Below, one piece after another: positions 3,335-37,389 of a stretch of 42,272 bases of DNA. This DNA comes from Pirellulales bacterium (lineage in GTDB: Bacteria; Planctomycetota; Planctomycetia; Pirellulales; JALHLM01), in contig JALHLM010000003.1 in assembly GCA_022844585.1 (NCBI GenBank), forward strand, positions 1 to 42,272. Reading direction: 5' to 3'. Position 1 is the first letter of the stretch; every line of letters starts with the position of its first letter. A program made the position numbers and the translations under genes. Below the pieces are notes generated by a model, which did not search any database, was not told the DNA's origin, and saw only the letters and a program-made list of their open reading frames with translations.

Positions 3335-3403
3335 AAACCGACGTCGCCTTCTATACTCGCTCGGCACATTGATCTGACCACACCTTGAGCAGGAACAGTT
3401 TTG

Positions 3404-7516: not shown

Positions 7517-7542
7517 TCGACAGTTCCAATGTCGGCATCCGG

Positions 7543-7599
7543 CTCACCGGCGCATGTGGCTCGTCCCCGCGAGCAACATCGCCGGTGAGTTCGTTTTTT
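7543..7599 (+). terminator. rho-independent terminator downstream of the 4238-7516 gene
   Basis: 19-bp stem (7543-7563 pairs with 7570-7589, with one bulge and one mismatch) and a 6-nt loop, followed directly by ttcgtttttt. Confidence 0.7.
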
Positions 7600-7654
7600 G
7601 AAACGCGGTTTCGAAGTCGGTGATGGTTTGCCCATAGGTTCGCCAGATGCGAGA

Positions 7655-7876
7655 ATGGCGGCCGCAATGAAACCGCGATTCTCCATTCTCGCCCTGGTCA
7701 TCGTGACCACCTATGCGGCCGTGTTCGCGGCGGCCTTGTCGCAGCCACGCGGCGTCTGGCTGTGGATCTCGCTCTATCTGGTCGCCATTCTGCCGTTCCT
7801 GATCATCGACCTGCTGATGCAACGGCGCGTCAAACGCCGCGACCAAACGGACGGACGCCCGACCGGGACTGGCTGA
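7655..7876 (+). CDS. small two-helix membrane protein (hypothetical)
   Basis: The ORF runs 7598-7876. The ATG at 7655 gives MAAAMKPRFSILALVIVTTYAAVFAAAL plus a second helix WLWISLYLVAILPFLIIDLL and a basic tail. Start uncertain. Confidence 0.5.
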   Translation: MAAAMKPRFSILALVIVTTYAAVFAAALSQPRGVWLWISLYLVAILPFLIIDLLMQRRVKRRDQTDGRPTGTG

Positions 7877-7973
7877 CGACGGCACGCATGCGGTATCTTG
7901 CCACGTACGACGCTCGGGTTTGAACTTTCCGGGCGGTCGCGGATTCATCGCCGGCAGCAACGAGGCACGACGC

Positions 7974-8783
7974 ATGGACTTGGGATTGAAAGGGCACACC
8001 GTCTTGATCACCGGCGGCGCCAGCGGCATTGGCCTGGCCACGGCGCGCGCGTTCGCGGAGGAAGGTTGTGCGTTGGTGCTGTGGGATATTTCCGCGCGCA
8101 TTGAGGCGGTCGCAATGGAGCTCGCCGCCGAGTATGGCGTGTCCGCCCATGGGATTCAGGTCGACATCGTCGATTTCAGCGCGGTGGAACGGGCGTTTCA
8201 AGCCACGCTTCAACACAGCACTAAGGTGGAGCATGTCGTCCATTGCGCCGCGATTGGTTCGACGAAGTTTGGATTTCCGTTCACGAATCTGTCGCCTGAA
8301 GATTGGAAGCGGACGCTCGACATCAACATCATGGGAATGGTGAACGTGGCCCACGCGGCCGCGCCGTATTTCGTCGAAGCGAAACGCGGGACGTTTGTGT
8401 TCCTGGCGTCTGTCGCCGGTCAGATTGGCTCGCAAACCGATCCACCGTATAGCGCCAGCAAGGCCGCGAATATCAACTTCGCGCAGTGCATGGCCAAAGA
8501 CCTGGCGAAGCACGGCGTCCGCGTGAACACCGTTTGCCCCGGCATGGTGCAGACGCCGCTGAATCGTTCCGTGTGGCAAGCGTGGCACGATCAAACGCCT
8601 GTCGCGGAACGCCTGGACTACGAAGACTGGGCTGCCATCAAGATCAAGGCGATCGTACCGCTGGGACGATGGCAAACGCCGGAAGACATCGCGGCGATGA
8701 TTGTGTTTTTATCGTCGGAGCGGGCCCAGCAAGTGACCGGACAGACGATTAACGTCGACGGCGGCTTCGTAATGCACTGGTAA
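7974..8783 (+). CDS. SDR family oxidoreductase (classical)
   Basis: The ATG at 7974 gives MDLGLKGHTVLITGGASGIGLATA. The catalytic motif YSASKAA and the PG motif (VCPGMVQTP) are canonical. Confidence 0.9.
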   Translation: MDLGLKGHTVLITGGASGIGLATARAFAEEGCALVLWDISARIEAVAMELAAEYGVSAHGIQVDIVDFSAVERAFQATLQHSTKVEHVVHCAAIGSTKFGFPFTNLSPEDWKRTLDINIMGMVNVAHAAAPYFVEAKRGTFVFLASVAGQIGSQTDPPYSASKAANINFAQCMAKDLAKHGVRVNTVCPGMVQTPLNRSVWQAWHDQTPVAERLDYEDWAAIKIKAIVPLGRWQTPEDIAAMIVFLSSERAQQVTGQTINVDGGFVMHW

Positions 8784-12217: not shown

Positions 12218-12223
12218 GCCCCC

Positions 12224-13642
12224 ATGAGCCGAGCCTGTCATCGCTTTACGCCGGTGTTCTCGCGACGCGAGTTATTGCGCTCGTCGGCGGGCGGTTTCGG
12301 TTGGCTGGCGCTGCGTGCGCTGATGGCTAGCGAACGCGCTAGTGGCGCGGCGATGGAAAATCCGCTCGCGGCGCGGGCGCCGCATTTCGTGCCGAAGGCC
12401 AAACGCGTGATCTTCCTGTTTATGCACGGCGGACCGTCGCAGATCGACACGTTCGACTACAAACCGCTCTTAACGCGCGATCACGGCCAGCCGCTGCCAT
12501 TCGCCAAGCCACGCGTCGTTTCCTCGCAGACGGGGAACTTGCTGGCCAGTCCCTGGAAATTCCAACAGCATGGGCAGAGCGGCGCTTGGGTGAGTGAACT
12601 GTTTCCGCATGTCGCCCAGCAGGTCGATCAGCTATGCATCTTGCGCGGGATGCATGGGTCAAATTCGCGGCACGGCGGGGCGTTGTTGGAATTGCACACA
12701 GGCAGCGATACCTTCGTGCGCCCGAGCATGGGTTCGTGGATTTGCTACGGGCTCGGGACGGAGAACGACAACCTGCCGGGGTATGTCACGATCTGCCCGA
12801 CGTTGACGCACGGCGGCGTGAACAACTACAGTTCCGCGTTCCTGCCGGCGGTCTATCACGGCACGCCGCTGGGAAATGCCAGCGTCTCGTCGGACCAGGC
12901 GAAGATTCCGTTTATCGAGCGCAAGGTTCCCTCGTCGCTGCAGCGTATGGAGCTGGATTATCTGCGCGAAGTCAACGCGGCACAGTTGTCGCAAACCGGG
13001 CCTGACGCGGCGCTCGAAGGACGGATCGAAGCGTTTGAACTCGCCTACCGGATGCAGACGGAAGCCCCGGAGTTGCAGGACATCAGCGGCGAAACGGCAT
13101 ACACAGAGCAACTCTACGGGCTCGATCAGCCGGAGACGCGCAACTTCGGGCGGCAATGCCTGATGGCTCGGCGCTTTGCCGAGCGCGGAGTGCGATTCGT
13201 TCAGGTGACGCACAGTTACAAGTGGGATCAACACAGTGGCTTGAAGAAAGATCATTCCAGCAACGCGATGGAAGTTGATCGGCCGATCGCCGGATTGTTG
13301 CAGGACTTGAAGGCGCGCGGGCTGCTGGATGACACGCTCGTCGTGTGGGGCGGCGAGTTCGGCCGCACGCCGACGGCGCAAGGGGACGACGGGCGCGATC
13401 ACAATCCGCACGGGTTCACGATGTGGCTGGCTGGCGGCGGGGTGAAGCCGGGCATCACGCACGGCGCCACGGACGACTACGGTTACTACGCCGTGGAAGG
13501 CAAAGTTCACTTCCACGATTTGCACGCCACGATCTTGCACTTGCTCGGTCTCGAACACACCCGGCTCACGTATCGCCATGCCGGACGCGATTTCCGCCTC
13601 ACCGACGTGCATGGCGAACTGGTGTCCGAAATCCTCGCATAA
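12224..13642 (+). CDS. DUF1501 domain protein (sulfatase/alkaline-phosphatase-like), Tat-type leader
   Basis: Starts 6 nt after the upstream stop. Leader SRRELLRSSAGGFGWLALRAL. Contains FLFMHGGPSQIDTFDYKP and GGEFGRTP...DHN motifs and ends ...RLTDVHGELVSEILA. Confidence 0.9.
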   Translation: MSRACHRFTPVFSRRELLRSSAGGFGWLALRALMASERASGAAMENPLAARAPHFVPKAKRVIFLFMHGGPSQIDTFDYKPLLTRDHGQPLPFAKPRVVSSQTGNLLASPWKFQQHGQSGAWVSELFPHVAQQVDQLCILRGMHGSNSRHGGALLELHTGSDTFVRPSMGSWICYGLGTENDNLPGYVTICPTLTHGGVNNYSSAFLPAVYHGTPLGNASVSSDQAKIPFIERKVPSSLQRMELDYLREVNAAQLSQTGPDAALEGRIEAFELAYRMQTEAPELQDISGETAYTEQLYGLDQPETRNFGRQCLMARRFAERGVRFVQVTHSYKWDQHSGLKKDHSSNAMEVDRPIAGLLQDLKARGLLDDTLVVWGGEFGRTPTAQGDDGRDHNPHGFTMWLAGGGVKPGITHGATDDYGYYAVEGKVHFHDLHATILHLLGLEHTRLTYRHAGRDFRLTDVHGELVSEILA

Positions 13643-20059: not shown

Positions 20060-23000
20060 CTATCGCTGAAGCCGCGCATCCTTGGCGATCCATGACGACT
20101 TTGGCCGCGCGTCCTTCAAGAGTCCTTCTTGCATCTTCAATGGCAGCCCCGCTTCGATGTGCAGGAGTTCCAGCAGGGCGTGATCCCAGGAGTTTTCGCG
20201 CGATGCGTCCTTGGGTTGACTGGCAATCGGCGCGAACAGGTACGCTTGGTCCGCGTCGACCTCTTGAACGCGCGTTCGCGATGCGAATGTAACGCGCGGC
20301 GCGACGCTGGCGACCGGCGACGGCATGCTGGCGCCGAAATTGTTACGGACGTTGTTGAGGTCGGCAATGTTCACGTCGCCGTCGCCGTTCGTATCGCCCA
20401 GGCCGACGCCGCCGAAGTTGTTGCGGACGTTGTTCAAGTCGGTGATGCCGACCTCACCGTCACCGTCGGTGTCGCCGAGCAACGTCGGCTCGTCCAGGCC
20501 GGGCGAGCCGTGGATGTCGCGGCTCGCGCGCCACGAGGCGCCGTCTTCCCAGGCTTCGGTCGGGCCATCCGCGTCGTCGATCACCAGGGAATAGCCGGAA
20601 CCGTCGGTCTCGGGCACCCAGTTGTCGTCGTAAATGAAATCGAGAATCGTCGCGCCGGATTTATTCTCGAGTCGGAGCCGCTCGCCGGCATTGTCGAGGC
20701 GCCCGTCGAAGACGCCCGCGACGGGTTTCGCGTCGCCGTAGCGGCTGGCGAAGGCGTCGGCGTTTTGCACCAGCACGAGCCGGGCGCCCGGCGCGAGTTC
20801 CGTGATGGCCGAAGTAGCGAAGTCGAATGAGATGCCGACGTTGAAGCGCGCGTTCGCGAGCGACAGCGCGATCGGACCCGTGTTCACCAGTTCGATGAAT
20901 TCGTAGTTGGCGTCTTCGTAGATGCCGCCCGGCGGACCTTCGGCAGGGTGATAGTGAATCTCCGCGATACGGAGGTAGTCCTCCAGCGGGCGGTCGGAGA
21001 CGGTGCTTTCCACGACGATCGAATCCGTGGCGATCAGCTTGCCGCGGAAATCGTACGCTTCGAGTTGCAGCGTGTGCTCGCCGAATGGCACGGGAACCTT
21101 GGCCGTCCAACTGTCGAGGTCGGTCCAGGTCAGGGCGAGCGGCTGGTCGCTTCCCGCCAGGCGGATTTCGCGAACGTTCACCCAGCCGTTGCCGCCGATC
21201 GTAGCAGTCGCCTCGTTGACGACCATTCCGTCGGCCGTGGTGATCGAGAACGGGATCTCCGCCACACGTCCCTTGACCTGCGTGAGAATGCTGTTGGAAC
21301 GCGTGACAATGAACGCCAGATGGCTGGCGAAGGGCTGCGCCGGCAACAACTGCCCGTAATTGGTGGCCCAATGGGCCATGTACGTGGAGTTGTAGGTGGT
21401 GCTGATGATGTCCTGCACATGGCCATAGTACGCCCGCGCTCTGGCGGGCGTATTCATGAGCTTCGGCAAGTCGGGGTTGTTTGGGACCAATGGACGATTG
21501 ACGTCGTAGAAGGCGTCCAGGTCGTGCGGCATGTGCAGAAACCGGTGATCGCTCGGCCGCTCGTAGAACATGACATTGTGCTGCGAGCCGTCTCCGCCGT
21601 AGCTGTCGCCGGCGCCGGAGAGCATTGAAATGGCGAAGCCGCGCATCCATTGATCGACGTCGATGACCTCGTTGGGGTCGACGGGATCGCGCCCACCGCC
21701 TGCCGCGAAGCCCTTCACAAACGTCATCAGACGGCTGTAGTCATCTTCCGCGCGATTGTTCTTGAGCAAGTACGTCCAGCGATAATCTTCCGGATTGTTG
21801 CCCAGGTCGCGAATCGTCGTGCCAACGACGGAATCGGGATTCGGCACTTTCAGTCCCTCGGGCGTGCCGTTGTCGGTCGAGTTGAGTTGATAGACGAGCT
21901 CGTACTCGTACATGTTCCCCGCGTCGCCATTCTCGTACTGCGAATCGAGATAGTCGCTGCCGTAGCGGGCCAGTTGCAGTTCCGCTCCGCCCGTGTGCGT
22001 CGCCTGCGGCGTGATGACCTTGATCAGGTCGTGATACTTGGTCGGCAAATCCTCGGCGTGGTTCATCGCCGCGTGGATCAGCATTTCCCGCTGGCCGAAG
22101 CCGACACTTTCGGAGCGATCGATCGCGACCGTGCGATGCACGCCTCGGAAGAGCTGCTCAGCGTTGAATTGCACCGCGAAACCCAGACGTTGGGGCGTGG
22201 TGCGGCTGTGCTCGCTTCCCTTGAGGCGGATGCCGACGTCGTAAAAGACTTCGGATTCGTTGTAGATCACCGTGCCGGGAATCCAATCGTTGCTCATCAG
22301 ATTGGTAGTGCGATGCAGCAGCGTTGCATCCGGCTGTGTGAGCAGCAGGCGGAGGTTATGCAGCCCGTTGGTGGCCGCCTGATTGTCGTTGACTTTGTAG
22401 AGCGCACGTGCATCGCGGCCGCGCGCCGGGAACGTGGAAGTGGCCGCCTCCGGCGAGGCGTCCACGCCTTCCACGTAGAACTGCACGATCGTGCTCGCCG
22501 CGAAGCCAGGTATGACGCCGCGATGGAGTCCGTCGGCGCCCAGCGTCATGGGGGCGCTGTTCCAAGCGCCGCCAGCGGCCGCATACCAGAGGGTCATGGA
22601 TGCCACGCCCGCTGCATCGCTGGCCCGCGCGCTGACCGTCACCGGCGCAAACGCCGCCGGCACCACGGGCGAATGTTTGAAGTCCGTATACGTGGGGCCG
22701 ATGTTCTCTTCCAGCCGTGTATTGTCCGAACCCGGCGTACCGCGCAGCTCGGGTTGATCGATCTCGGTCGTCTGCACGAGCCGGTTGAAATACAGCCGCG
22801 TATGCAATTGCCTCGAACCGGCCACCCAGCGGGCGCGGAACGAGATCTCGTATTCGCGGCCGTTGACGATGGTGACGATGTCGTTGCCGAACTTGAGCGT
22901 GGTTTCCGCGTGGTTCGACATATGCTCCGTCTCGCCGGTCGCGCGGAGACGCAACACTTCGTTGCTGGGATCGTCCGGATCCGCGACGACATCGCCATGG

Positions 23001-25150
23001 TGGTTGCCGATGATCCGCCACTTGTCGGCGTTGCCGGCGGAGAACGTGCTGTTCTGAATCACTTGCCGGTTGGTGCCCAACGGGTCTTCGACGACGCGAA
23101 TGTCATCGAGCAGCACTTCGCCGCTTTCGAGCAGGCCCATCACAAATTCTTGCCACTGCCCGTCGGGACCAACCTTGCTGGCCTGGGCGACGCCGCGATA
23201 CGTATACGTCCGCCATTCCGTCTGGCCGGTGGAATCGCTCGCCGCCCAGGCTTCCGGCGACGCGTTGTCCGCCCAGGGATCCCGCAACTCCAGTGTCACG
23301 CCGCCGCCGTCGGCGAACTCGGGCCAACGCCCGCCCTCATAGTAGTGCACTTCATCCGCGGGATTGCCGACGCTATCGCGGAGCCGAATGCGTTCGTCTG
23401 TATTGGACAGCGAACCGGCGAAGCCGCCGATGATCGTGGCCGATGGATACTTCGCGGCGAGCGCGACGGGATCGTTCGCCACGACCAGGTGCGCGCCTGG
23501 CGCCATGACGGTTCCCGCTGGAAAGACGTACTCCATGGCATCGTCGAACGACCAGCCGGAAAGATCCACCGGGAGGTTGCCGCGATTATACAACTCCACC
23601 CATTCTTCGGCGCTTTCGGCGAAGGGTACGGCCGGCTGCGGCGGCGTGATCAATTCCGCGGTGAGCAACGTGGCGCCGAACACGACATCGGTTGAGCCGA
23701 CCGTGCGCTGATGTGTTTCGACGGCCAGGTGATTCTCGCCCGCCACCAAGAACTCTGGCGGAATAACGAACGACTCGCTCATGATGGCATCGCCGACGGC
23801 CCCGGTGGCCTCGGTCAGATAGTTCAGCTCTTCTTCCAGCGTGTCCTGATTGAAGTCCAGGAAGCGATGCCCGTTGATATAGAACACGGCGCCGTCGTCG
23901 ACGACATGGCGCAACTGCACCGGCTGGTCCGACGAGTCCAGTTGGAAGGTCGTGCGGAAGTAGTAGGTCAGGAACCCGTGCGTCAGCGGCGTCGTCTTGG
24001 CGCCGGGCAGCGCCCCCGTCTCGTAGTAAAACAGGCCACCGCCGGACTTCCACTGCGTGTCGTTGTAGCCTGGTTCCCGCCAAGCTTCGCCACGATCCAA
24101 GCCGGAATCGTCGTAGCGCCAGGTCGCGGTGAGTGGCAACAGCGTGGTGGCGGGCCCGAACTCGCCCGCGGTGGCCGGCGAGCCCAACGTCGGTGCATCG
24201 TGGTACATGATCTCGTTGATCACAATGTCGTCTTGCAACGAGAACTCGTTTTCATCGCCGGGCGTCAACACTGAGGGGCGCAAGAAATCGTTCGTCATCG
24301 GATCGAGCCGGGCTTGCCCAAACTCGGTGACGCGCGCGGCGTCAACGATTTCCGCGCCGTTGTTCGCAGCCAGCAACAGTTCCTCGCCCAACCCGGGCTG
24401 AAAGCCGAGTTGCGCGACGTTCAGCGTCAGAAAGTCTCCGACGGGCAACGACTGCACCGGCAATGAATAGCTGTCGCCGGAGCCAGTCAAGACGCGATAG
24501 CCGTTGAGGGGCGCCGCGGCATCGCTGGTGTTCGCCAACTCGATCCAGAATTGATTGCCAACCGGCGCGATCTCCGACAGACGAAGTCCCACGACGATGG
24601 GCGCCGTCGGCACGCCAGGCGCGCCAAAGTTCTCTTGCCCGGGCGTCCCGCCGACGCGAACACTGCTGGCCCAGTTCGCCGCTGGTTCGCTGGCCAAGTT
24701 ACGATTGATCTTCGCGAGGCTGGCGCCGCTGCCATCGGGAGCGATCGGCCAGAGTCCTCCGTCGGAGTACTCGATTTCGTTCATCAAGCGATCGTTGCGA
24801 TCGACCAACTGGAGCGCGTCCGAGTTGTTGGAAAGCCGTCCGGTGAACGGCCCCAATGCTCCGGCAAACTGACCTGAGGCCGCGAGCGCTGTTGGATTGC
24901 GGGCAATGACGAGGTACTCACCGCCGCCCAGGAACGTGCCTTCCTCGAAGGTGAACTGAATGCCGCCGTCCAGACGCCAGTTCGACAAGTCCATGTCGAC
25001 GGCCATCTGATTGTGCAGTTCGACCCATTCCAACTGTTCGTCGACGTCGGTGGGATGATACATCAACTCGTTGAAGACGACGGTGCTGTCGAGGACGAGT
25101 CGTTGTTCGAGAGATTCCAACTGGATCCGACGCCGGCGCATGGAGTTCAC
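20060..25150 (-). CDS. giant secreted lamin-tail-domain (LTD) x4 / CotH kinase-like protein with a dockerin-like cassette
   Basis: 1696 aa with leader MRRRRIQLESLEQRLVLD. LTD signatures are FNELMYHP...EWVELHN, LSEIAP...FWIELAN, INEIMYH...EEWVELYN and IAEIHYHP...EFIELVN. A CotH-like core lies around aa 915-1290 (about 21281-22408). The cassette GDTDGDGEVGITDLNNVRNNFG x2 lies near the C-terminus. Confidence 0.85.
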   Translation of the reverse strand: MNSMRRRRIQLESLEQRLVLDSTVVFNELMYHPTDVDEQLEWVELHNQMAVDMDLSNWRLDGGIQFTFEEGTFLGGGEYLVIARNPTALAASGQFAGALGPFTGRLSNNSDALQLVDRNDRLMNEIEYSDGGLWPIAPDGSGASLAKINRNLASEPAANWASSVRVGGTPGQENFGAPGVPTAPIVVGLRLSEIAPVGNQFWIELANTSDAAAPLNGYRVLTGSGDSYSLPVQSLPVGDFLTLNVAQLGFQPGLGEELLLAANNGAEIVDAARVTEFGQARLDPMTNDFLRPSVLTPGDENEFSLQDDIVINEIMYHDAPTLGSPATAGEFGPATTLLPLTATWRYDDSGLDRGEAWREPGYNDTQWKSGGGLFYYETGALPGAKTTPLTHGFLTYYFRTTFQLDSSDQPVQLRHVVDDGAVFYINGHRFLDFNQDTLEEELNYLTEATGAVGDAIMSESFVIPPEFLVAGENHLAVETHQRTVGSTDVVFGATLLTAELITPPQPAVPFAESAEEWVELYNRGNLPVDLSGWSFDDAMEYVFPAGTVMAPGAHLVVANDPVALAAKYPSATIIGGFAGSLSNTDERIRLRDSVGNPADEVHYYEGGRWPEFADGGGVTLELRDPWADNASPEAWAASDSTGQTEWRTYTYRGVAQASKVGPDGQWQEFVMGLLESGEVLLDDIRVVEDPLGTNRQVIQNSTFSAGNADKWRIIGNHHGDVVADPDDPSNEVLRLRATGETEHMSNHAETTLKFGNDIVTIVNGREYEISFRARWVAGSRQLHTRLYFNRLVQTTEIDQPELRGTPGSDNTRLEENIGPTYTDFKHSPVVPAAFAPVTVSARASDAAGVASMTLWYAAAGGAWNSAPMTLGADGLHRGVIPGFAASTIVQFYVEGVDASPEAATSTFPARGRDARALYKVNDNQAATNGLHNLRLLLTQPDATLLHRTTNLMSNDWIPGTVIYNESEVFYDVGIRLKGSEHSRTTPQRLGFAVQFNAEQLFRGVHRTVAIDRSESVGFGQREMLIHAAMNHAEDLPTKYHDLIKVITPQATHTGGAELQLARYGSDYLDSQYENGDAGNMYEYELVYQLNSTDNGTPEGLKVPNPDSVVGTTIRDLGNNPEDYRWTYLLKNNRAEDDYSRLMTFVKGFAAGGGRDPVDPNEVIDVDQWMRGFAISMLSGAGDSYGGDGSQHNVMFYERPSDHRFLHMPHDLDAFYDVNRPLVPNNPDLPKLMNTPARARAYYGHVQDIISTTYNSTYMAHWATNYGQLLPAQPFASHLAFIVTRSNSILTQVKGRVAEIPFSITTADGMVVNEATATIGGNGWVNVREIRLAGSDQPLALTWTDLDSWTAKVPVPFGEHTLQLEAYDFRGKLIATDSIVVESTVSDRPLEDYLRIAEIHYHPAEGPPGGIYEDANYEFIELVNTGPIALSLANARFNVGISFDFATSAITELAPGARLVLVQNADAFASRYGDAKPVAGVFDGRLDNAGERLRLENKSGATILDFIYDDNWVPETDGSGYSLVIDDADGPTEAWEDGASWRASRDIHGSPGLDEPTLLGDTDGDGEVGITDLNNVRNNFGGVGLGDTNGDGDVNIADLNNVRNNFGASMPSPVASVAPRVTFASRTRVQEVDADQAYLFAPIASQPKDASRENSWDHALLELLHIEAGLPLKMQEGLLKDARPKSSWIAKDARLQR
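20333..20476 (-). repeat. tandem dockerin-like cassette, copy 2 of 3
   Basis: GDTDGDGEVGITDLNNVRNNFGGVGLGDTNGDGDVNIADLNNVRNNFG. It shares gccgaagttgttgcggacgttgttcaagtc with the other copies. Confidence 0.85.
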
Positions 25151-25321: not shown

Positions 25322-27550
25322 TTAAGCGAGACGGCGTCGCATGACGAGAGCGCCGATGCCCAGGCAAACGGCCAGCACGACGCTGCCCGGCTCCGGAACC
25401 GCGTTCGCCGGGCCGCCAGCCCCGAAGTTATTGCGGACGTTGTTCAGGTCGGTGATGGTGACGAGGCCATCGCCATTGGTGTCGCCCAAACCTGCGCCGC
25501 CGAAGTTATTGCGGACGTTGTTCAAGTCTTCGATGGTGACTTTCCCGTCGCCGTTCGTATCACCTTCCTGGCCGACCGCTCCGGCGATTCCGAAGAACTG
25601 CACTTCGCTCAACCCCGCGAACGCGGCATCCGGTTCCCCGCCAACGGCCGGATACGTGACGCCGTTGTGGTTGGAGCGAATGTCGAACCGCACGAAACGG
25701 ATGTCGTTGCGATCGAGGGCAATCGTCTCCGAGAAGTCGACGTCGCCGACGCCCGGCGCCACGTCCAGAGCAAAGCTGCCGGCCGGCGTGAAGGGGCCGG
25801 CGAAATCCGCAGCAACCGAAATATCAAACGCGTTGACGCCCCGACCCAAGAGTTCGGGCCGACCCTCCAGCGTTTCGTTGTAGTTCCAGATCTTCACGTC
25901 GGTCACGTCCGTGACGGCGCCCATGTCGAACACAACGAAGGGGGCGGTATCGGTGCCGCCTAAGAAGCCGACGCCGTTGGTAAGCCACATGAAACCATCG
26001 GGAACAATCGTGTGCGTCCCGGCGGCGAAGTCCATTCCGGAGCCATCCAGCATGTGCGAGGCGGCCCGTTCAAAGGGCGTCCCCAATTGGCTGGATACGT
26101 TTGCGATCGCTACATTCGGCAGCCGGTATTCAGTTCCCGGCGTCGGGGAACCAACATAGTTAACGGTCGCCGGGGCCAATTCGCTGCCTTCAGTGGGCAC
26201 TACGGCCAACGTGAGGTCTCGATATCCACCTGGACGAAACGGCTCGCCCAACTGAATGATCTCGTTGTTCGCCAGCGTCGTGACGCCGGGATTCCGCAGC
26301 TCACTCAGCTGTCGGTTGCGGGGATTTGCTTTTTCCCAATTGGGCGTCGGCTTATCGGTCAGGCTGTCCCACGTCGCTGGGTTCAGGCTGGCGCTTCCCG
26401 AGGCGATGGAATAGTTGTCCAGTTCGAACGGCGCTCCCGTCTGGTTCGTGAGCGACGTGACTCCGGAGTAAGGATTGACCGTCAGCACCAGCTGGGCGCT
26501 TGCGGCCGAAGTCAATGCACCGACCAAACCGACCACGGCAAGGCCCGCTGCGGCCTTGCGCGAGCGGCGTCCCACGTACAGCAGTCCCGCTCCCAGCGCC
26601 AATAACAAAACGCTCGACGGTTCCGGCACCGTGATGCCGTTCTGTCCGAGCCGCGTCTTCATCAAGCGAAAGTCAAAGCCGTCGACGCGGCCGTTGAGGT
26701 CGACGTCCCCTTGCTCGAACGTGTTGCCAGTGCCGAAGTTGTCGCGCAGAATGCCGTAGTCGGCCAGGTCGACCACGTCGTCGTAGTTGATATCGAACGG
26801 ATCGAACTCCGGCAGGCCAATGGGGCTTGTGCCATCGGCCAGCAGCGCGATCTGAGCGGACTTCAGCGGCTCATTCCAAAACGCCAGGTCATCCATCCAG
26901 CCGAGAAAGTTGGAGTAGCTGTCGCCCCGCGTGCCGACGATCAATGGATTGTCGTTGGTCACGAGCGGCCCGGCCAAATTCGACGTTCCCGCAGGTGCGC
27001 CGTCAACGTAGAACTGCACTGCGGCGCCGGCGTTGACCACAGCCGCCACGTGGTGCCATTCCAGCGGAGCGATTGCGACGTTGCTGCTATAGCCGCCCAG
27101 CGTCGGGCCTTCCGTCGTTTGGTGCAGGAAGTCGAGGAAGCCTCCTGGATTGATGCGGAGTTCGAAATTGCCGGGGTAGTTGATGGGCGCGGTGCCGCTG
27201 GGCCCCTTCACGGCGATGAAGTAATACGTCGCGGCGTCCGACATGTTCACCCAACCGGCGATGGTCAGTCCCGTGGTCATGTCCAGAGACGCCGAGTCGG
27301 GCACAAAGAAGCCGCCAGGTCCGCCTTCCATATTGAAGGAAGTCCCCGAGCCGATCTGAGGCGGCACATCGTCATGGAAAGTGCCGTGTTGAACCGAGGA
27401 TGGGTTATTGCCGAACCCTGAGGAGTCTTCCACTTCCTCGTCAAAGTTGTAGTAGGCGACCAAATCCGCTTGGGCGGTCGAGGCGGCCAACAACAGGCCG
27501 GTCAATGCCAATGCGCGCAGCGCGAGCCTCATGGAGTATCTCCTGTTCAT
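25322..27550 (-). CDS. composite secreted protein: two complete PEP-CTERM proteins fused in frame
   Basis: One 742-codon ORF. aa 1-332: signal peptide (LLLAASTAQA), a LamG-like body, a degenerate dockerin-like pair and the tail VPEPSSVLLLALGAGLLYVGRRSRK. aa 326-742: a second signal-peptide-like segment, a galactose-binding-like domain ending LSEVQFFG, a tandem dockerin-like cassette and the tail VPEPGSVVLAVCLGIGALVMRRRLA. Confidence 0.8.
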   Translation of the reverse strand: MNRRYSMRLALRALALTGLLLAASTAQADLVAYYNFDEEVEDSSGFGNNPSSVQHGTFHDDVPPQIGSGTSFNMEGGPGGFFVPDSASLDMTTGLTIAGWVNMSDAATYYFIAVKGPSGTAPINYPGNFELRINPGGFLDFLHQTTEGPTLGGYSSNVAIAPLEWHHVAAVVNAGAAVQFYVDGAPAGTSNLAGPLVTNDNPLIVGTRGDSYSNFLGWMDDLAFWNEPLKSAQIALLADGTSPIGLPEFDPFDINYDDVVDLADYGILRDNFGTGNTFEQGDVDLNGRVDGFDFRLMKTRLGQNGITVPEPSSVLLLALGAGLLYVGRRSRKAAAGLAVVGLVGALTSAASAQLVLTVNPYSGVTSLTNQTGAPFELDNYSIASGSASLNPATWDSLTDKPTPNWEKANPRNRQLSELRNPGVTTLANNEIIQLGEPFRPGGYRDLTLAVVPTEGSELAPATVNYVGSPTPGTEYRLPNVAIANVSSQLGTPFERAASHMLDGSGMDFAAGTHTIVPDGFMWLTNGVGFLGGTDTAPFVVFDMGAVTDVTDVKIWNYNETLEGRPELLGRGVNAFDISVAADFAGPFTPAGSFALDVAPGVGDVDFSETIALDRNDIRFVRFDIRSNHNGVTYPAVGGEPDAAFAGLSEVQFFGIAGAVGQEGDTNGDGKVTIEDLNNVRNNFGGAGLGDTNGDGLVTITDLNNVRNNFGAGGPANAVPEPGSVVLAVCLGIGALVMRRRLA
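25325..25399 (-). other. PEP-CTERM sorting motif (C-terminal)
   Basis: VPEPGSVVLAVCLGIGALVMRRRLA occurs directly before the stop codon. Confidence 0.85.
25421..25564 (-). repeat. tandem dockerin-like cassette, copy 3 of 3
   Basis: GDTNGDGKVTIEDLNNVRNNFGGAGLGDTNGDGLVTITDLNNVRNNFG. Confidence 0.85.
26555..26629 (-). other. internal PEP-CTERM-type motif in mid-ORF
   Basis: VPEPSSVLLLALGAGLLYVGRRSRK at aa 308-332 of the 742-aa ORF. No stop codon follows it. Confidence 0.8.
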
Positions 27551-29670: not shown

Positions 29671-29894
29671 ATCGAAAACTATCGGGGACCAGGTCGTTCG
29701 GACATCGGCCCAACGGCGGCCGATCCATGTGCGCATCGCGTAACCAACCCAGGTCAGCTCGGCGACGCCCCAATCTTACCCGACGACCGGTCGCGAATAT
29801 CAGCCCGGTGGCTGGGGAGGATCGATTCGTCCTGCCTGCGATCGTCGAATCCGCTAAGATGCCGTGCCTGGGCCTTCCGATTGTCACATCGCCG

Positions 29895-31253
29895 ATGAAT
29901 GTTTTGAATGCAAGCCTGTTGAGGCGTCCGTATTGGGCGCTGTTTTTCGTCGCGCTGGCGGTGCGGCTGTTAGCGGTGCAACTGCTCTGGGCGCCGTCGG
30001 ATCTGCCGCGCAGCTACGAGCATGGCGAGATCGCCGCGAATCTCGTCGCCGGGCGCGGGTTTCGCGTGGAGTTTCTGCATGCCGACCGCCTGACTTCCCA
30101 GCAGGCCCCGTTCTACCCGTACTTGCTGGCCGGGGCATTTCTGCTTTACGGAACGCATGCTCCGGCGGCGGACCTGGCCGTCCAGACGCTGCAATGTTTT
30201 GCCGGAGCGGTAATTTGCCTGGAGGTGGTACGGCTTGCGCGCGCCGTGTTGCCCGAACGAAGCCGAGTCGCGTGGATCGCCGGCTACGGCGCGGCGCTCT
30301 ATCCGCCGCACGTCTATGCGGTCACCCATCTGCAGGTAGCGCTCTGGGCGGCGCTCTGGCTCACGCTGTTGGCGGCCTGGTGTTTGAGCGCCGACCCGAC
30401 GCGGATCGTTCGCACCGGCGCTGTCGCGGGTCTACTGGGCGGATTGCTCGTGCTTACTGAACCGATCCTCGCCCTCGCGTTGCCGGTGCTGGCGATGGCG
30501 CTTTGGCAACGGGCCTATCGCATTGGAATTGGCGCGAAGCGCTGGATTGCTTCGGCGCGACCGACCGTCGTGATGACAGTGGCCACGTGCTTGTTGATTG
30601 CGCCGTGGATCGTGCGCAACTATGCCGTGCATGGCGAATGGGTGTTTATCAAGTCCACTTTCGGGTACGCCTTTTGGCAGGGGAACAACGCTTCCAGTTG
30701 GGGCACCGACAAGATTCCCATGCCCGATGCAGCGATGCGCGCCGCCCAGCACGACGGCTCGATCCGCGAGATGAACGCTGCGCTCTGGGCCGCGCGTTAC
30801 GAAACGACTTACATCGACGACCTGCTGTTGACCGACGAGGACTACGCCCAGTTCGCAGAACTATCTGAACCTGTGTGTTGCCGACTGCTAGGGGACCGGG
30901 CGTGGCAGTTTATTCACGACGATCCTGGCACCTACGCGAAGTTGTGCCTGAATCGGCTGCGGTATTTTCTGCTGTTCGACGAGACGAACCCCAAGGCGTC
31001 GCATCTTGTCTACCGTGGATCGACGCTCGCCTGGCTGGTGCTCGCGATCAGCGGTTTGGTCGTGACACGCCGCGAATGGAGGACCCTGTGGCCGACTTAC
31101 GCGGTGTTCGGGCTGATCCTCGTGTTTCATGTGCTCACCATTACGTCGGCCCGTTTCCGTATTCCGGTGGAGCCGCTGACGTTTTCCTGGTGCGCGGCCG
31201 GTGTGGAACAAATCCTACGATGGATCGCGGCGCTGCGCGGTCGGCGGGCGTAA
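29895..31253 (+). CDS. glycosyltransferase family 39 / ArnT-like polytopic membrane protein
   Basis: The ATG at 29895 gives MNVLNASLLRRPYWALFFVALAVRLL. The protein has many TM helices with an ArnT/PMT-like N-terminal layout (YEHGEIAANLVAGRGF). The upstream extension in the ORF track is not hydrophobic. Confidence 0.65.
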   Translation: MNVLNASLLRRPYWALFFVALAVRLLAVQLLWAPSDLPRSYEHGEIAANLVAGRGFRVEFLHADRLTSQQAPFYPYLLAGAFLLYGTHAPAADLAVQTLQCFAGAVICLEVVRLARAVLPERSRVAWIAGYGAALYPPHVYAVTHLQVALWAALWLTLLAAWCLSADPTRIVRTGAVAGLLGGLLVLTEPILALALPVLAMALWQRAYRIGIGAKRWIASARPTVVMTVATCLLIAPWIVRNYAVHGEWVFIKSTFGYAFWQGNNASSWGTDKIPMPDAAMRAAQHDGSIREMNAALWAARYETTYIDDLLLTDEDYAQFAELSEPVCCRLLGDRAWQFIHDDPGTYAKLCLNRLRYFLLFDETNPKASHLVYRGSTLAWLVLAISGLVVTRREWRTLWPTYAVFGLILVFHVLTITSARFRIPVEPLTFSWCAAGVEQILRWIAALRGRRA

Positions 31254-33163: not shown

Positions 33164-34516
33164 CTATTTGACGCCACTAGCGCTCGATGCTTCGTCGGCG
33201 CTTAACAATCCGTCGGCGTCGGCATCCAGCGCGCGAAAGTGCTCTGCTGGCAGCGGCGACTCCCTCGCGGTCACGAGGCCATCGTCATTGGCGTCCATCG
33301 CGCGGAACCATTTGGGCGAGCTCGTGACTGCGACCGTCGGAGTGGTCGACCTACTGGATCGCTTGGGGAGCGCCACACCGCCCCATGATTTGGCGCTCGG
33401 TCCGACAAACTCGAGGGAAAAATATCGCCTCGACGGACAATCGATTTCGCTCGTCAACGCGACCGAAGCAAAGCTCAACTCCGCCATGCTCAACCGGCCG
33501 TTCGAGTCGCCGTCGATCAGAGCCGTGGGGTTCCCGGTGTGATCCGTAACCTGCACCCACACCTGGCAGGCGGCGCCTTGAGCGACCAGATCGCAGTAGG
33601 CGTTCAGTTCCTCCGACGTCAACTGTCCATCCGCGTCTCGATCGGCATAGCGTGCCAACTCGGTAAACCCGGAAAGACTTGGAGATTGACCAATCTCGTC
33701 GAGGCGGAGGAATCCGTTGCTGCCCGCGGACGCCTGGAACTGGGCCAGCAGGAACTCGCGCGTGGTCGCCACGTCGGGCGCCGAGCGCTCAGCTACGACG
33801 GTGAGTGTCCATGGCTCGCGCGGATGAGAAACCCGGAAGCGGCGCGAGGCCAGCCAAGTGCTGACGATGTCTCCCTGCGTTGTGGTGGCGGCTGCCGATT
33901 CTGGCAAATCACTGCCAAGTTCGATACGCAAGACCGCGCGCGGCGTCGATTCGACTTTCTGACTCAGGTCAGCGGCGTCCGCCTGGCGAAGAACGTCGCC
34001 AGCGAAGGCCAGGAACTCGTTTTCTTCCCAAACGTCGTCTTCATTCAAATCATAACGCCGCAACGCCTGTGGCAATGTGGTGTCGCTAGGCGTCGCCATC
34101 GCCTTATGAAAAATATGGGCCAATTGAAGGTCGCGCTCCGCGTGCGGAACATATTCAACGACGACGGGGGCAAATCCATGGAGGCGACTATACTCTTCCA
34201 TCTCCTGCGGAGCCGCCGCGCCATTCCGGTTTGCATCGAGCGTCGCGAAATCGAGTGTCAGCAGGCCGCGATCCGGCAGCGGCAGCGGCATCATTCGCGC
34301 CACTTCTTCCCGATTCAATGTTCCATCGCGATCCTGATCGAAGTAATCGACCAGTTTGGACAAAAAATCGCGCCAGGGCTTCTCGACATCCTGTCCATGG
34401 AGCGAAAGCTCCAGTGAGATCGCCGGCACGTCGTAGGGAGCGTTCGCTCGCAGGTCGATTTGCGCCTGCGCGCGGGATACGATCAGCATTAGCGCTATGA
34501 GAATCGAGAACCTCAT
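33164..34516 (-). CDS. secreted multi-EF-hand calcium-binding protein
   Basis: The ATG at 34516 gives the signal peptide MRFSILIALMLIVSRAQAQ. There are seven 12-residue EF loops: DQDRDGTLNREE, DANRNGAAAPQE, DLNEDDVWEENE, DRDADGQLTSEE, DGDSNGRLSMAE, DANDDGLVTARE and DADADGLLSADE. The ORF-track extension to 34870 overlaps the DUF1501 gene and is rejected. Confidence 0.8.
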   Translation of the reverse strand: MRFSILIALMLIVSRAQAQIDLRANAPYDVPAISLELSLHGQDVEKPWRDFLSKLVDYFDQDRDGTLNREEVARMMPLPLPDRGLLTLDFATLDANRNGAAAPQEMEEYSRLHGFAPVVVEYVPHAERDLQLAHIFHKAMATPSDTTLPQALRRYDLNEDDVWEENEFLAFAGDVLRQADAADLSQKVESTPRAVLRIELGSDLPESAAATTTQGDIVSTWLASRRFRVSHPREPWTLTVVAERSAPDVATTREFLLAQFQASAGSNGFLRLDEIGQSPSLSGFTELARYADRDADGQLTSEELNAYCDLVAQGAACQVWVQVTDHTGNPTALIDGDSNGRLSMAELSFASVALTSEIDCPSRRYFSLEFVGPSAKSWGGVALPKRSSRSTTPTVAVTSSPKWFRAMDANDDGLVTARESPLPAEHFRALDADADGLLSADEASSASGVK

Positions 34517-35799
34517 GCCAGCGCCTCGCGGATGGGCTGGCCAATAGGGTCCACCAGTCGAATCGGGCGATCGACGTTGGAGTCGTTCTGAATCCGCGGA
34601 TCGATTTCGAGCGCCGTGCAGACGGTCGCCATCAGGTCCGGCACCGTGACCGTCTGTTACTCGATCTGCATGCCGTCCGGGCTCGTGCGGCCGATGTGCT
34701 GGCCGCCGCGAATGCCGCCGCCCCCCAGCACGACGCTCCAGGCCGCCGCATAATGGTCGCGGCCCGCGCGCGGGTTGATCGCGGGCGTCCGCCCGAATTC
34801 GCCCATCCACACGATCAACGTCGAGTCCAACAGTCCGCGGCTGTTCAAATCTTCGATCAGCGTCGACCAACCGGCGTCGAGCGCGCCGGAGAGCGTCTTC
34901 ACCTGCTCGAAGTTATTGTCGTGCGTGTCCCAGCCGTCGAGCGTGACTTCGACGAAAGACACGCCACGCTCGACCAATCGACGCGCCAGCAAACAACCCT
35001 GGCCGAAGTGCCCGCGCCCGTACCGATCGCGGAGCGCGTCCGGTTCCTGATTCAAGTCAAACGCCCGCGCCGCGGTGGCGCGTTGCAAACGGACGGCGCG
35101 ATCATAGGCCGTAACATGCCCGTCCGTTGCGGCACCGGAATGTCCGGAGAGGAAGTTTGTTTCGAGATCTCCGAGCAACTGCAATCGGCGCTCGGCACGT
35201 CGCGGGGCATCCAGGCGAGATCCCAAGTCCTCGACGCGCAACTCGTCGCCACTCGCGCCGACCACGAGCGGGGCGTAGCGCGGTCCAAGAAACCCGGCGG
35301 AAACAGCGACTTGGCTGAATGCGCGTTGCGGCAGCACACTTACATAACTGGGCAAGTCGGCGTCCAGGTCGCCAAGTTCCTTCGCCAGCAGCGCGCCGAG
35401 CGATGGAAACCGGATCGACCCTTGGTTCACATAGCCCGTCCTCAGGTGATATGTTGCGCGGCCATGATCTCCTTCCTTGGTGTGCATCGAACGAACCACG
35501 GCGAGGTGCTCCGCCTGCCGGCCGAGCGAGGGCAGGTGTTCGCTGAATTGCACGCCGCTGACGCTGGTCTCAATTGGCCGGATCGGGCCGCCATTCGCAT
35601 GTTCGGGCTTGAGATCAAACGTATCCAACTGGCTCGGTCCGCCGGCCATCCAGAGCAAGATGCAGGCCCGCTGGCGATCCGGCGCCGTAGCGGCCTGTGC
35701 CGCCAGCCGACTCAGCCAGGTCGATGACAGAATGGCGCCGGCGCCATGCCCGGTCGCGCGCAAGACCGAGCGTCGCGTGAGTCGGTCGAACCTATGCAT
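34513..35799 (-). pseudogene. DUF1501 domain gene interrupted by an in-frame TAA (34657-34659)
   Basis: The open ORF 34657-35799 (380 aa, Tat-like TRRSVLRATG, LWMAGGPSQLDTFDLKP, GEFGRTP) ends ...GMQIE. The same frame continues QTVTVPDLMATVCTALEIDPRIQNDSNVDRPIRLVDPIGQPIREALA and stops at TGA 34513-34515. This continuation aligns with the C-terminus of the paralog at 12224-13642 (VHFHDLHATILHLLGLE...RDFRLTDVHGELVSEILA). Confidence 0.75.
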
Positions 35800-35826
35800 G
35801 CGTCGTACCTCGTGGTCCTGCGTCCG

Positions 35827-37389
35827 TCAGTGATTCATGCGAAACTCGGCGCTCGCCAGCAAGGCCCAGAACACGTCCGCCAGCAGCAGGCGTCGATCTT
35901 CCTCGGGCGATGCGTCGAACACTGTGGCGATCTTCGCGCGCTCCGTCGGTGCGGGCAATCGCCCCAGCACGGCCAGGTAGAGGCCGTCGATTTGCTCGTC
36001 GAGCGTGAGTCCCGGCGTGGAATCGATCGCCACGAGCGTGGGGCATTCGTCGATGTTGGCGGCCCAGTCCGTGAAGCTCCCGTTGAGCAACGTCAGCGCT
36101 TGCTGCACCGAAGTCTCCGGATCGACGGCCGCAGCGCCGCGTGCGAACCGCGTTTGCAACAGCCGCCGGGCGGCGCCTTTGTCTTGCTGGTCCCGGTATC
36201 CAGTCGCCAGCGCGATGCTATCGAAAAACTGTTCGCCGGTGAGCGACTTGAGCGGCATCCGGGCTGGCAACGCCGTGCGATCCTGACTGGCGTCGGTGCG
36301 CACGCTCGATCGTTGATACGCGTCCGTCAGACAAATCGCCCGCATCAGGTAGCGGATGTCGAAGCCCGATGCCGCGAAGGCCTGCGCTAACTCTTCCAGC
36401 AACTTTGGGTGGATGGGCGGATTGTCGTCGCGGAAATCGTCGACGGGCTCGACGATGCCGCGGCCGAAAAACTGCGCCCAAATTCGGTTCGCGCCGGCCC
36501 GGGCAAAATATGGATTGTCGCGCGCCGTGATCCAGGCCGCCAACATCGCGCGCGGCGACGGCTCGCGACTCCAGTCGGGCTCGTCCCCGACCAGAAACGT
36601 CGCCGCCTGCGCGACGTCTTTTTCCGGCGGCGTTACATGGCGCACCGCCACGGTCTCGACCAATGGGGCGAACATGCCTGCGCCCTGTCGCTGCACGCTG
36701 GCAAAGAACGCGGCCTGCTGCCAGAACTGGTCTTGGCTCCACGCCGCGAACGGATGATCGTGGCACTGCGCACATTCCATGCGCAACCCCAGGAATGTTC
36801 GCGTCACCGCGGCCGCAAGGTTTTCCGGCTTGGCATCTTTGACCGCATAGAAGGCCAACGGATTCGGCCGCACCGGGTCGCGCAACACCGGTTCAGCGCC
36901 CTGGCCGTCCTGCGCAATCGGTGCCGTCAGCAATTCGCGGACGAGCGCGTCATACGCGACGCCGGCCCGTGCGCGGTCCTGTAGCCAGGCCTCGAAGCCG
37001 ACTCGAAAGACGCCCGCCCCGCGATCGGCCATGGTCTCGGGCAGCAACTCTGCTCGCCAGACGTTGGCAAAATGCACGGCGAAACGCGGACTGTCGAGCA
37101 ACTGTTCGACGACCTGGGCGCGTTTGACGGGGGCGTCGTTTGACAGAAACTCGCGGACCTCCGAAACACGAGGAATGCGGCCGTTGAGATCGAGATACGC
37201 GCGGCGCAGAAACTCGGCGTCATCGGCCCGCGGCGCGAGTTGAATTCCCTCAGTCTGCCAATGTTGTTCGAGCAACGCATCGATGCGCGCGGCTAGTTGC
37301 GCAGCGCTCGCGCGCTCATCGCCGCGCGCACTGTTTACCACGAGCAGCGTGCATCCGACGACAAACGGAAGTGTCAGCCAGCGCAACAT
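35827..37389 (-). CDS. DUF1549 + DUF1553 domain protein (no cytochrome c module)
   Basis: Signal peptide, then FLRRAYLDLNGRIPRVSEVREFL (DUF1549-like) and CAQCHDHPFAAWSQDQFWQQAAFF (DUF1553-like). A 27-nt gap separates it from the downstream DUF1501 gene. Confidence 0.9.
   Translation of the reverse strand: MLRWLTLPFVVGCTLLVVNSARGDERASAAQLAARIDALLEQHWQTEGIQLAPRADDAEFLRRAYLDLNGRIPRVSEVREFLSNDAPVKRAQVVEQLLDSPRFAVHFANVWRAELLPETMADRGAGVFRVGFEAWLQDRARAGVAYDALVRELLTAPIAQDGQGAEPVLRDPVRPNPLAFYAVKDAKPENLAAAVTRTFLGLRMECAQCHDHPFAAWSQDQFWQQAAFFASVQRQGAGMFAPLVETVAVRHVTPPEKDVAQAATFLVGDEPDWSREPSPRAMLAAWITARDNPYFARAGANRIWAQFFGRGIVEPVDDFRDDNPPIHPKLLEELAQAFAASGFDIRYLMRAICLTDAYQRSSVRTDASQDRTALPARMPLKSLTGEQFFDSIALATGYRDQQDKGAARRLLQTRFARGAAAVDPETSVQQALTLLNGSFTDWAANIDECPTLVAIDSTPGLTLDEQIDGLYLAVLGRLPAPTERAKIATVFDASPEEDRRLLLADVFWALLASAEFRMNH

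Follow-up and report, generated by a model that had tools for sequence, protein, structure and literature searches.

An in-frame fusion of two PEP-CTERM protein genes in a Pirellulales bacterium, with an internal sorting signal running into a predicted signal peptide

Introduction

Can a sorting signal that belongs at the end of a protein work in the middle of one? This question is raised by a gene on the minus strand of contig JALHLM010000003.1 (Pirellulales bacterium, assembly GCA_022844585.1), of which 42,272 nucleotides, hereafter the window, were analysed. The canonical PEP-CTERM signal sits at the extreme C-terminus, and in its carriers no transmembrane segment intervenes between signal peptide and tail (PMC1569441); a later preprint (bioRxiv 10.1101/2023.06.07.544157) gives the same criterion and describes exosortases as the enzymes that cleave PEP-CTERM. 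In the window gene, a complete PEP-CTERM tail is followed directly by a segment resembling a signal peptide and then by a second PEP-CTERM module, the two modules sharing one open reading frame (ORF). A first-pass annotation, made from the letters alone, had described this as two complete secreted PEP-CTERM proteins concatenated in frame, a description with which both the layout given by hidden Markov models (HMMs) and the related fused genes agree. The stretch it singled out, 26492-26629, corresponds exactly to aa 308-353, VPEPSSVLLLALGAGLLYVGRRSRKAAAGLAVVGLVGALTSAASAQ. The elements on which the argument turns are as follows (a slash marks a predicted cleavage site throughout).

25322-27550, minus strand: whole ORF, 742 aa counted from the first ATG; probable product 736 aa from M7 at 27532
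26555-26632, minus strand: internal PEP-CTERM, aa 307-332, made up of TVPEP, a 16-residue transmembrane helix and RRSRK; Pfam and TIGR02595
26555-26569, minus strand: shared basic cluster RRSRK, aa 328-332, the cytoplasmic end of tail 1 and predicted n-region of the next signal peptide
26495-26554, minus strand: internal signal-peptide-like h- and c-regions, aa 333-352, AAAGLAVVGLVGAL TSAASA; script and homology
Between 26495 and 26494, minus strand: predicted signal peptidase I site A352/Q353
25325-25402, minus strand: terminal PEP-CTERM, aa 717-742, AVPEPGSVVLAVCLGIGALVMRRRLA; TIGR02595; stop at 25322-25324

The reading favoured here, to which a probability of about 0.6 is given, is that the genes of two Sec-exported, exosortase-sorted carbohydrate-binding surface proteins were joined in frame long ago and that selection has maintained the fusion, whose product would be resolved at the membrane by the processing set out below.

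The junction in related genes

Fused full-length orthologues with the same architecture are present in independent assemblies, namely P0002/L004 (79% identity), P0003/L001 (72%), P0004/L003 (64%) and L073 (75%); together with the window gene they constitute the five fused genes referred to in this text, and all five hold the junction in frame. In a codon alignment of the window gene, L004, L001 and L003, the synonymous divergence (dS) at the junction is saturated (about 1.8), the ratio of nonsynonymous to synonymous divergence (dN/dS) is 0.24, and the sole indel amounts to one codon; in the domains dN/dS falls to 0.11-0.18, with purifying selection on both halves. Moreover, Logan contigs from four unrelated metagenome studies span 26419-26834 with no indel, their variants being synonymous at 26491, 26555 and 26564 and amounting to V314A at 26610. 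The missed stop or frameshift that had been named as grounds for discarding the observation is found neither in those four studies nor in the five genes, and the observation is confirmed as real and no artefact. Short metatranscriptome contigs were also recovered from both halves in three runs. The relatives are annotated as metagenome-assembled genomes (MAGs) of Planctomycetia or Pirellulales.

Origin of the fusion

The two modules also exist as separate genes, in the same order, at three syntenic loci (L005, L143 and L144), where the halves are 51-61% identical to those of the window. In L005 (uncultured Pirellulales, CAZUBB010000208.1) the end of gene 1, ...GLTVPEPGSALLMTIGAILGLCAWRRR-TAA, is followed by a 69-nt spacer and then by the start of gene 2, MSWKYLCAAAVAGVLVPGMGATLASGQ/LVLTVD...; the spacer measures 48 nt in L143 and 62 nt in L144. 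In all three loci the stop of gene 1 comes directly after RRR(R), and 7-8 nt separate GAGGAA from the gene 2 ATG that follows it. The comparison of orthologous loci, proposed at the outset as a means of deciding between one gene and two, thus returns two genes in these loci, with a stop after the basic cluster. The pair in L005 is followed by an LTD/CotH gene 69% identical to that at 20060-25150 of the window, a conserved neighbour shown for L005 alone, the corresponding downstream gene being not known in L143 and L144. A difference from the window gene is that gene 2 of the unfused pair has a beta-sandwich of about 120 aa twice (checked in the L005-type protein P0011), the window gene having it once.

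Relative to L005, the fused genes are without 81 nt, a stretch that runs from the stop of gene 1 through the spacer and its ribosome-binding site to the ATG and initial codons of gene 2, so that the basic cluster of tail 1 sits directly against the hydrophobic core of the second signal peptide. Nothing in the fused genes takes the place of the ancestral translation-initiation region that gene 2 has lost. The window gene is therefore demonstrated to be an in-frame deletion fusion of a tandem gene pair. Of the stop-loss fusion of tandem genes that had been among the options first considered, the fusion is borne out by the three unfused loci, whereas a simple loss of the stop does not agree with the 81-nt deletion seen against L005.

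The signals at the junction

The internal PEP-CTERM (aa 307-332) scores 24.7 bits on PF07589 (cut-off 20.7) and, on TIGR02595 (cut-off 16), 23.9 bits within the N-half and 30.4 bits as an isolated peptide. The terminal one (aa 717-742) is canonical in motif and position (VPEP, 16-residue helix, RRR), just passing TIGR02595 as an isolated peptide (16.6 bits) and falling short of the PF07589 cut-off, with 15.0 bits, when the C-half alone is searched. By the PEP-CTERM HMM that had been advised as a check, both copies reach the TIGR02595 cut-off, the terminal one narrowly. Several PEP-CTERM signals occur in this one genome (aa 307-332, aa 717-742 and a gene at 3401-4120), and among the three, scored on TIGR02595 as isolated peptides, the internal copy ranks first. 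Its helix of 16 residues is as long as that of the terminal signal. The signal peptide required of PEP-CTERM proteins is present at aa 7-28 (MRLALRALALTGLLLAASTAQA/D), as judged from the n-h-c heuristic and conservation in the orthologues. The internal copy departs from the family in its location, being remote from the C-terminus: the ordinary tails of the window finish 1-2 residues past the basic cluster, in keeping with the earlier remark that a stop normally follows soon after the tail, whereas 411 residues lie beyond the internal one.

The segment behind tail 1 has the n-h-c layout of a signal peptide, with the basic RRSRK, a 14-residue uncharged core, within the roughly 7-15 residues usual for an h-region, and TSAASA/Q, with small residues at -3 and -1. 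Signal-peptide calls were made throughout with our own crude n-h-c script together with homology; by this script, the h- and c-regions of the internal segment total 20 residues, compared with a median of 18 for the N-terminal signal peptides of 118 related proteins, and its AxA/Q site matches that of the N-terminal signal peptides of relatives. Furthermore, in an alignment with the unfused syntenic loci the segment falls on the N-terminal signal peptide of gene 2, and the mature start behind it, QLVLTV, is shared; the HMMER alignments of the C-half to stand-alone relatives extend into the N-terminal signal peptides of those proteins. The suggestion that the basic cluster of the tail doubles as the n-region of the next signal peptide agrees with L005, L143 and L144, where the equivalent segment is the N-terminal signal peptide of gene 2. 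As to position, the internal segment lies 332 residues into the ORF, with no conserved start or ribosome-binding site, and not at an N-terminus. The second helix, a 14-residue uncharged core with a six-residue c-region, would have the geometry of a signal peptide, unlike that of an anchor.

Among the five fused genes, the lengths of the basic cluster (5) and of the h- and c-segment (20) are fixed. VPEP (4/4), RR.R, A350 and A352 (positions -3 and -1) and Q353 and L354 (+1 and +2) are invariant, while the hydrophobic cores vary, with invariant positions limited to 4/16 in the first and 3/14 in the second. Invariant VPEP, RR.R and A.A/Q together with variable cores support cleavage by signal peptidase I and exosortase, without proving it.

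Recurrence of the architecture

The C-half, used as query in a full HMMER search, had 4069 matches, of which 158 representative homologues are covered by the counts that follow. In 29 of these, 34 internal PEP-CTERM signals were found, and 33 of the 34 are followed by an n-h-c segment (AxA in 27, Q at +1 in 15). Twenty junctions are tight, with at most 10 residues from the first basic residue to the h-region, and a Met lies between in only one; 13 are loose, with spacers of 11-41 residues, 8 of which contain a Met resembling a former start. Three modules each are carried by P0038, P0041, P0066 and P0124. The contigs of P0124 and P0038 contain neither an internal stop, read with table 11, nor any N, and Pfam finds three PEP-CTERM stretches in P0038; multi-module proteins as artefacts of gene calling or genetic code are rejected for these two, which were checked on DNA, some 25 other multi-signal proteins being known at the protein level. 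When 1.08 Mb of loci, fetched via LamG/discoidin similarity, were scanned in all six frames, internal junctions were seen only in orthologues, compared with 20 terminal signals, so that the architecture is recurrent in the C-half family and not ubiquitous.

It is tentatively proposed, at a little below even odds, that tail plus signal peptide form a recurrent, evolved 'cut-twice' linker, by which Planctomycetes would turn tandem genes into two- or three-module polyproteins that signal peptidase I and exosortase would resolve at the inner membrane. If this were so, exosortases would recognise non-terminal signals. The tight geometry, with about five shared basic residues, may have been reached independently many times, possibly twice in the gene family studied here.

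As a separate observation on the loose fusions P0144, P0066, P0124 and P0093, several of the read-through spacers give similar peptides (THSSSQGT, VHSSSQGA, SNDSQQGD) just before the former start Met, as would fit a conserved 5' leader or ribosome-binding region, by chance free of stops in this frame.

Proposed processing and rival explanations

In the processing proposed, a single precursor would be translated from M7, and its N-terminal signal peptide would open SecYEG for the export of module 1. The PEP-CTERM helix would then halt transfer, RRSRK being kept in the cytoplasm in accordance with the positive-inside rule, and the next hydrophobic segment, as second limb of a helical hairpin, would restart export and allow module 2 to be exported in turn, until the terminal PEP-CTERM helix halted transfer again. 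Signal peptidase I would cut at ASA/Q and exosortase at both PEP motifs, the outcome being two separately sorted surface lectins in a 1:1 ratio and a discarded hairpin peptide of about 40 residues. Judged from conservation patterns, a polyprotein cut by signal peptidase I and exosortase is the best-supported mechanism.

Several points weigh against this interpretation. Both cleavages are predicted from sequence, and the identity of the internal signal peptide from the crude script and homology; exosortase would, moreover, have to act on a PEP-CTERM that is followed by a transmembrane segment and offers no free C-terminus. The exosortase itself is absent from the 42-kb window (none by Pfam on 20 window ORFs) and from all fetched loci (multi-transmembrane filter over all loci, then NCBIfam on ten candidates, which turned out to be transporters, a prenyltransferase and unknowns), and its presence in the organism is assumed. 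The metatranscriptome contigs of the three runs include none that crosses the junction and show no transcript end, and the carriers looked up are all metagenome-derived and uncultured. Finally, the trees of the two halves conflict as regards a single fusion event: with the C-half the five fused genes form one clade (95.5% bootstrap), whereas with the N-half the fused L003 pairs with the unfused L144 (100% bootstrap). The similarity along the N-half of L003 is mosaic. This conflict points to either one fusion with later recombination or two independent fusions.

The alternative that survives best, though it is judged unlikely, is that of a fusion left uncut or cut once, that is, a three-helix inner-membrane protein showing its LamG and CBM32-like domains in the periplasm, with the junction serving as a hairpin anchor. 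A first transmembrane segment, five basic residues and a second transmembrane segment do make a standard hairpin obeying the positive-inside rule, and a low-confidence full-length AlphaFold2 (AF2) model (predicted local distance difference test, pLDDT, 32.6; four-sequence alignment) puts helices at 311-327 and 331-347. Moreover, cleavage presumes an exosortase acting on a non-terminal signal, and a single-chain PEP-CTERM protein with LamG and discoidin domains and no internal signals (L006, described below) indicates that tethering both domains is biologically acceptable. An anchor of this kind, however, would have no need of invariant VPEP and -3/-1/+1 residues beside freely varying cores, nor of AxA in 27 of 33 independent junctions, and the 14-residue uncharged core of its second helix would be signal-peptide-like and short for a stable anchor, short h-regions being known to promote cleavage of internal signals by signal peptidase (PMC2120157).

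Less probable still is a nested gene, in which ribosomes would also initiate within the junction, at the GTG at 26573-26575 or at a nearby GTG/TTG, and yield module 2 alone. The GTG, which the first-pass annotation had offered as a possible internal start, encodes V326, and its counterparts in the other fused genes are CTG, CTG, GCC and TTT. In four of the five fused genes some in-frame GTG/TTG does occur no more than eight codons ahead of the basic cluster, and initiation independent of a Shine-Dalgarno (SD) sequence is compatible with the sequence; nevertheless, these codons hold no conserved position, L004 has none in that interval, and GTG/TTG are expected by chance in the Leu/Val-rich helices of a GC-rich genome. 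No SD-like core is found between PEP and the basic cluster in any of the five, whereas the genuine starts do have one ahead of them, AGGAG or GAGGAA in both unfused genes and in the fused ones, apart from L073 with TGGAGA. The nested gene as first suggested is thus not borne out by the codon or by its surroundings. Furthermore, no sigma-70-like promoter lies on the coding strand within the gene, and a promoter/terminator scan gave nothing above shuffled background. Both products would in any case share one frame, and the full-length precursor would be made regardless, because a stop after RRSRK would also kill the internally started product.

A sequencing or assembly error, a recent meaningless stop loss or a decaying pseudogene is hardly credible, since, even if the window and all its relatives are metagenome assemblies, five independent assemblies at 64-80% identity keep the junction open at saturated dS and low dN/dS, the four further metagenomes are free of indels, and both halves are under purifying selection and represented in metatranscriptome contigs, so that this explanation is effectively refuted by orthologues, metagenome contigs and selection.

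Relation to known systems and significance

The two-signal polyprotein considered here appears to be a variant of a known sorting system, recurrent in Planctomycetes. Like the canonical substrates of the PEP-CTERM/exosortase (EpsH, Xrt) system (Haft et al. 2006, PMC1569441), both window modules consist of a signal peptide, a non-enzymatic body, PEP, a transmembrane helix and a basic cluster; unlike them, the first signal is internal, with a signal peptide directly behind it and the 411 residues already mentioned. Full-text literature was searched, and no description of tandem or internal PEP-CTERM signals, PEP-CTERM polyproteins or midcut was found.

Among curated families, midcut-by-XrtH (NF033207) alone bears a name that points to a mid-protein exosortase signal. 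The window protein aligns faintly with it over the transmembrane-basic-transmembrane region (aa 314-379) but is no member, scoring 9.9 bits (E 0.73) against a cut-off of 45. To our knowledge, there is no indication that the downstream part of midcut-by-XrtH proteins is a second complete PEP-CTERM protein.

Functionally, the nearest parallel is with polyproteins resolved by signal peptidase, as in bunyavirus Gn/Gc (PMC5113920) and in accordance with the rules for internal signals (PMC2120157), where an upstream stop-transfer helix is likewise followed by a cleavable internal signal restarting downstream translocation. The differences are that in those cases signal peptidase acts alone or with viral proteases, whereas here the predicted parts would also be processed by a transpeptidase-like sorting enzyme, and that the arrangement of the window type arose repeatedly by fusing ordinary cellular genes. 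A bacterial polyprotein of this signal-peptidase-resolved kind is exemplified by the cytochrome b/c1 precursor FbcH of Bradyrhizobium.

A conventional counterpart is provided by L006 (JAWKTN010000005.1, Pirellulaceae MAG BC1.9, 5965-8085), which, like the window gene, combines LamG, discoidin-type and dockerin-like modules with a terminal PEP-CTERM in a single ORF, its F5/8-type-C domains numbering two, but has neither an internal PEP-CTERM nor an internal signal peptide, being a true multidomain protein; given this conventional form, the window junction is not simply a linker.

The sorting of PEP-CTERM proteins by exosortase, a process of poorly known biochemistry, has a C-terminal signal as its defining mark. 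In this context, natural proteins with a strongly conserved internal signal would make it possible to test directly if exosortase depends on a free C-terminus, and the coexistence of fused and unfused orthologues means that the two states can be compared experimentally. If the proposed processing is true, it would constitute a bacterial cellular example of a polyprotein resolved by signal peptidase, otherwise mostly a viral strategy. Annotation rules limited to C-terminal PEP-CTERM or N-terminal signal peptides will misdescribe such proteins, and the cassette of tail and signal peptide is a possible linker for co-secreting two proteins from one ORF.

Start codon and further features

The true start is almost certainly M7 (ATG at 27532), giving a protein of 736 aa, because all orthologues begin there and the motif upstream of this ATG, CAGGAGATACTCC, is also conserved. 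The mechanically called ATG at 27550 is probably wrong, the AGGAGA ribosome-binding site falling within codons 2-4 of the longer ORF. An exact look-up of the 742-aa ORF gave no match because the deposited gene call begins at M7. The remaining features are listed below.

27539-27544, minus strand: SD-like AGGAGA, 6 nt upstream of the M7 ATG; shared by all five fused genes except L073, which has TGGAGA
27467-27532, minus strand: N-terminal signal peptide, aa 7-28, MRLALRALALTGLLLAASTAQA/D; predicted by n-h-c heuristic and orthologue conservation
26846-27313, minus strand: LamG/ConA-like lectin domain PF13385, aa 80-235; Pfam, 85.1 bits against a cut-off of 27.6
26648-26797, minus strand: module 1 dockerin-type/EF-hand-like calcium-binding repeats, aa 252-301; Pfam
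26573-26575, minus strand: GTG (V326), once proposed as an internal start; not conserved and with no ribosome-binding site
26135-26494, minus strand: module 2 first domain, beta-sandwich of about 120 aa, aa 353-472; no Pfam model
25580-26134, minus strand: module 2 CBM32/F5-8 type C (discoidin)-like galactose-binding fold, aa 473-657; homologues and fold, model pLDDT 82
25415-25573, minus strand: module 2, two dockerin-type/EF-hand-like repeats (GDTNGDG..DLNNVRNNFG), aa 660-712; Pfam

Cargo domains

No sequence HMM for F5/8 type C or CBM32 exceeds its cut-off in module 2, where Pfam/NCBIfam gives a sub-threshold DUF4457/discoidin-like region at aa 511-620 (DUF4457, 24.8-26.1 bits against 26.7), and a PDB sequence search with the C-half had no match. 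Homologues of module 2 at 35-47% identity carry PF00754/PF22633. Moreover, in an AF2 model of aa 354-742 (38-sequence alignment, pLDDT 82), Foldseek recognises an Ig-like beta-sandwich followed by a CBM32/F5-8-type-C galactose-binding fold, with probability 1.0 to CBM32/discoidin domains and target TM-scores of 0.6-0.73 (7d2a, 2v72, 4a44, 3nng), and also matches the Ig-linker and galactose-binding part of a Micromonospora sialidase (1eut, 2bzd). No catalytic domain was found in either module. From the fold only, both products are most likely glycan-binding surface proteins.

The repeats score 37.9 bits on dockerin type I (PF00404, cut-off 22.9) and may be plain EF-hand-like calcium-binding repeats. 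The DNA of the DLNNVRNNFG dockerin-like repeat at 25420-25540 is common to many genes from many different metagenomes; at this place contigs reach up to 50-fold greater depth, and assemblers form chimeric joints.

The first domain of module 2 has the consensus 'LVLTVNxxxG...YSIxSxSxSL...W.SL.D...WE.ANP'. This beta-sandwich of about 120 aa, which over the wider set reads 'LVLTVNxxTGxxxLxNxS..(D/E)GYSIxSxSGSL..W.SL.D....W.EANP....L.EL', has no Pfam/NCBIfam model and is a candidate new domain family; it occurs in many planctomycete and verrucomicrobial PEP-CTERM proteins (P0011, P0024, P0034, P0038 and others), often in tandem and typically right behind the signal peptide.

Surroundings of the gene

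At 3401-4120 (plus strand) lies the gene of an ordinary PEP-CTERM protein of 239 aa, which has no Pfam domain and ends in the tail PEPGTLGLGLFAGLSIAAFSAFKRPRR-stop (TIGR02595, 16.9 bits). A 508-aa ORF at 29727-31253 (plus strand) has at least six hydrophobic helices and no Pfam/NCBIfam match, and is no exosortase by HMM; by eye it resembles GT-C-type glycosyltransferases. It was compared with the 516-aa unknown ORF upstream of the L001 orthologue, and the two are unrelated.

The window carries PSCyt1/PSCyt2/PSD1 and DUF1501 genes of planctomycete type, in two pairs of PSCyt/PSD1 (DUF1549/DUF1553) with DUF1501 at 9848-13642 and 34657-37389, a hallmark of Planctomycetes; the second PSCyt/PSD1 pair looks truncated or overlapping, the ORFs 33164-34870 and 34657-35799 overlapping each other. 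Immediately downstream of the fusion, at 20060-25150 (minus strand), lies a gene of 1696 aa with lamin-tail domains and CotH-like and CBM_4_9-like regions, which ends in the same GDT(D/N)GDG..DLNNVRNNFG repeats with no PEP-CTERM and is kept both beside the fused gene and beside the unfused pair in L005.

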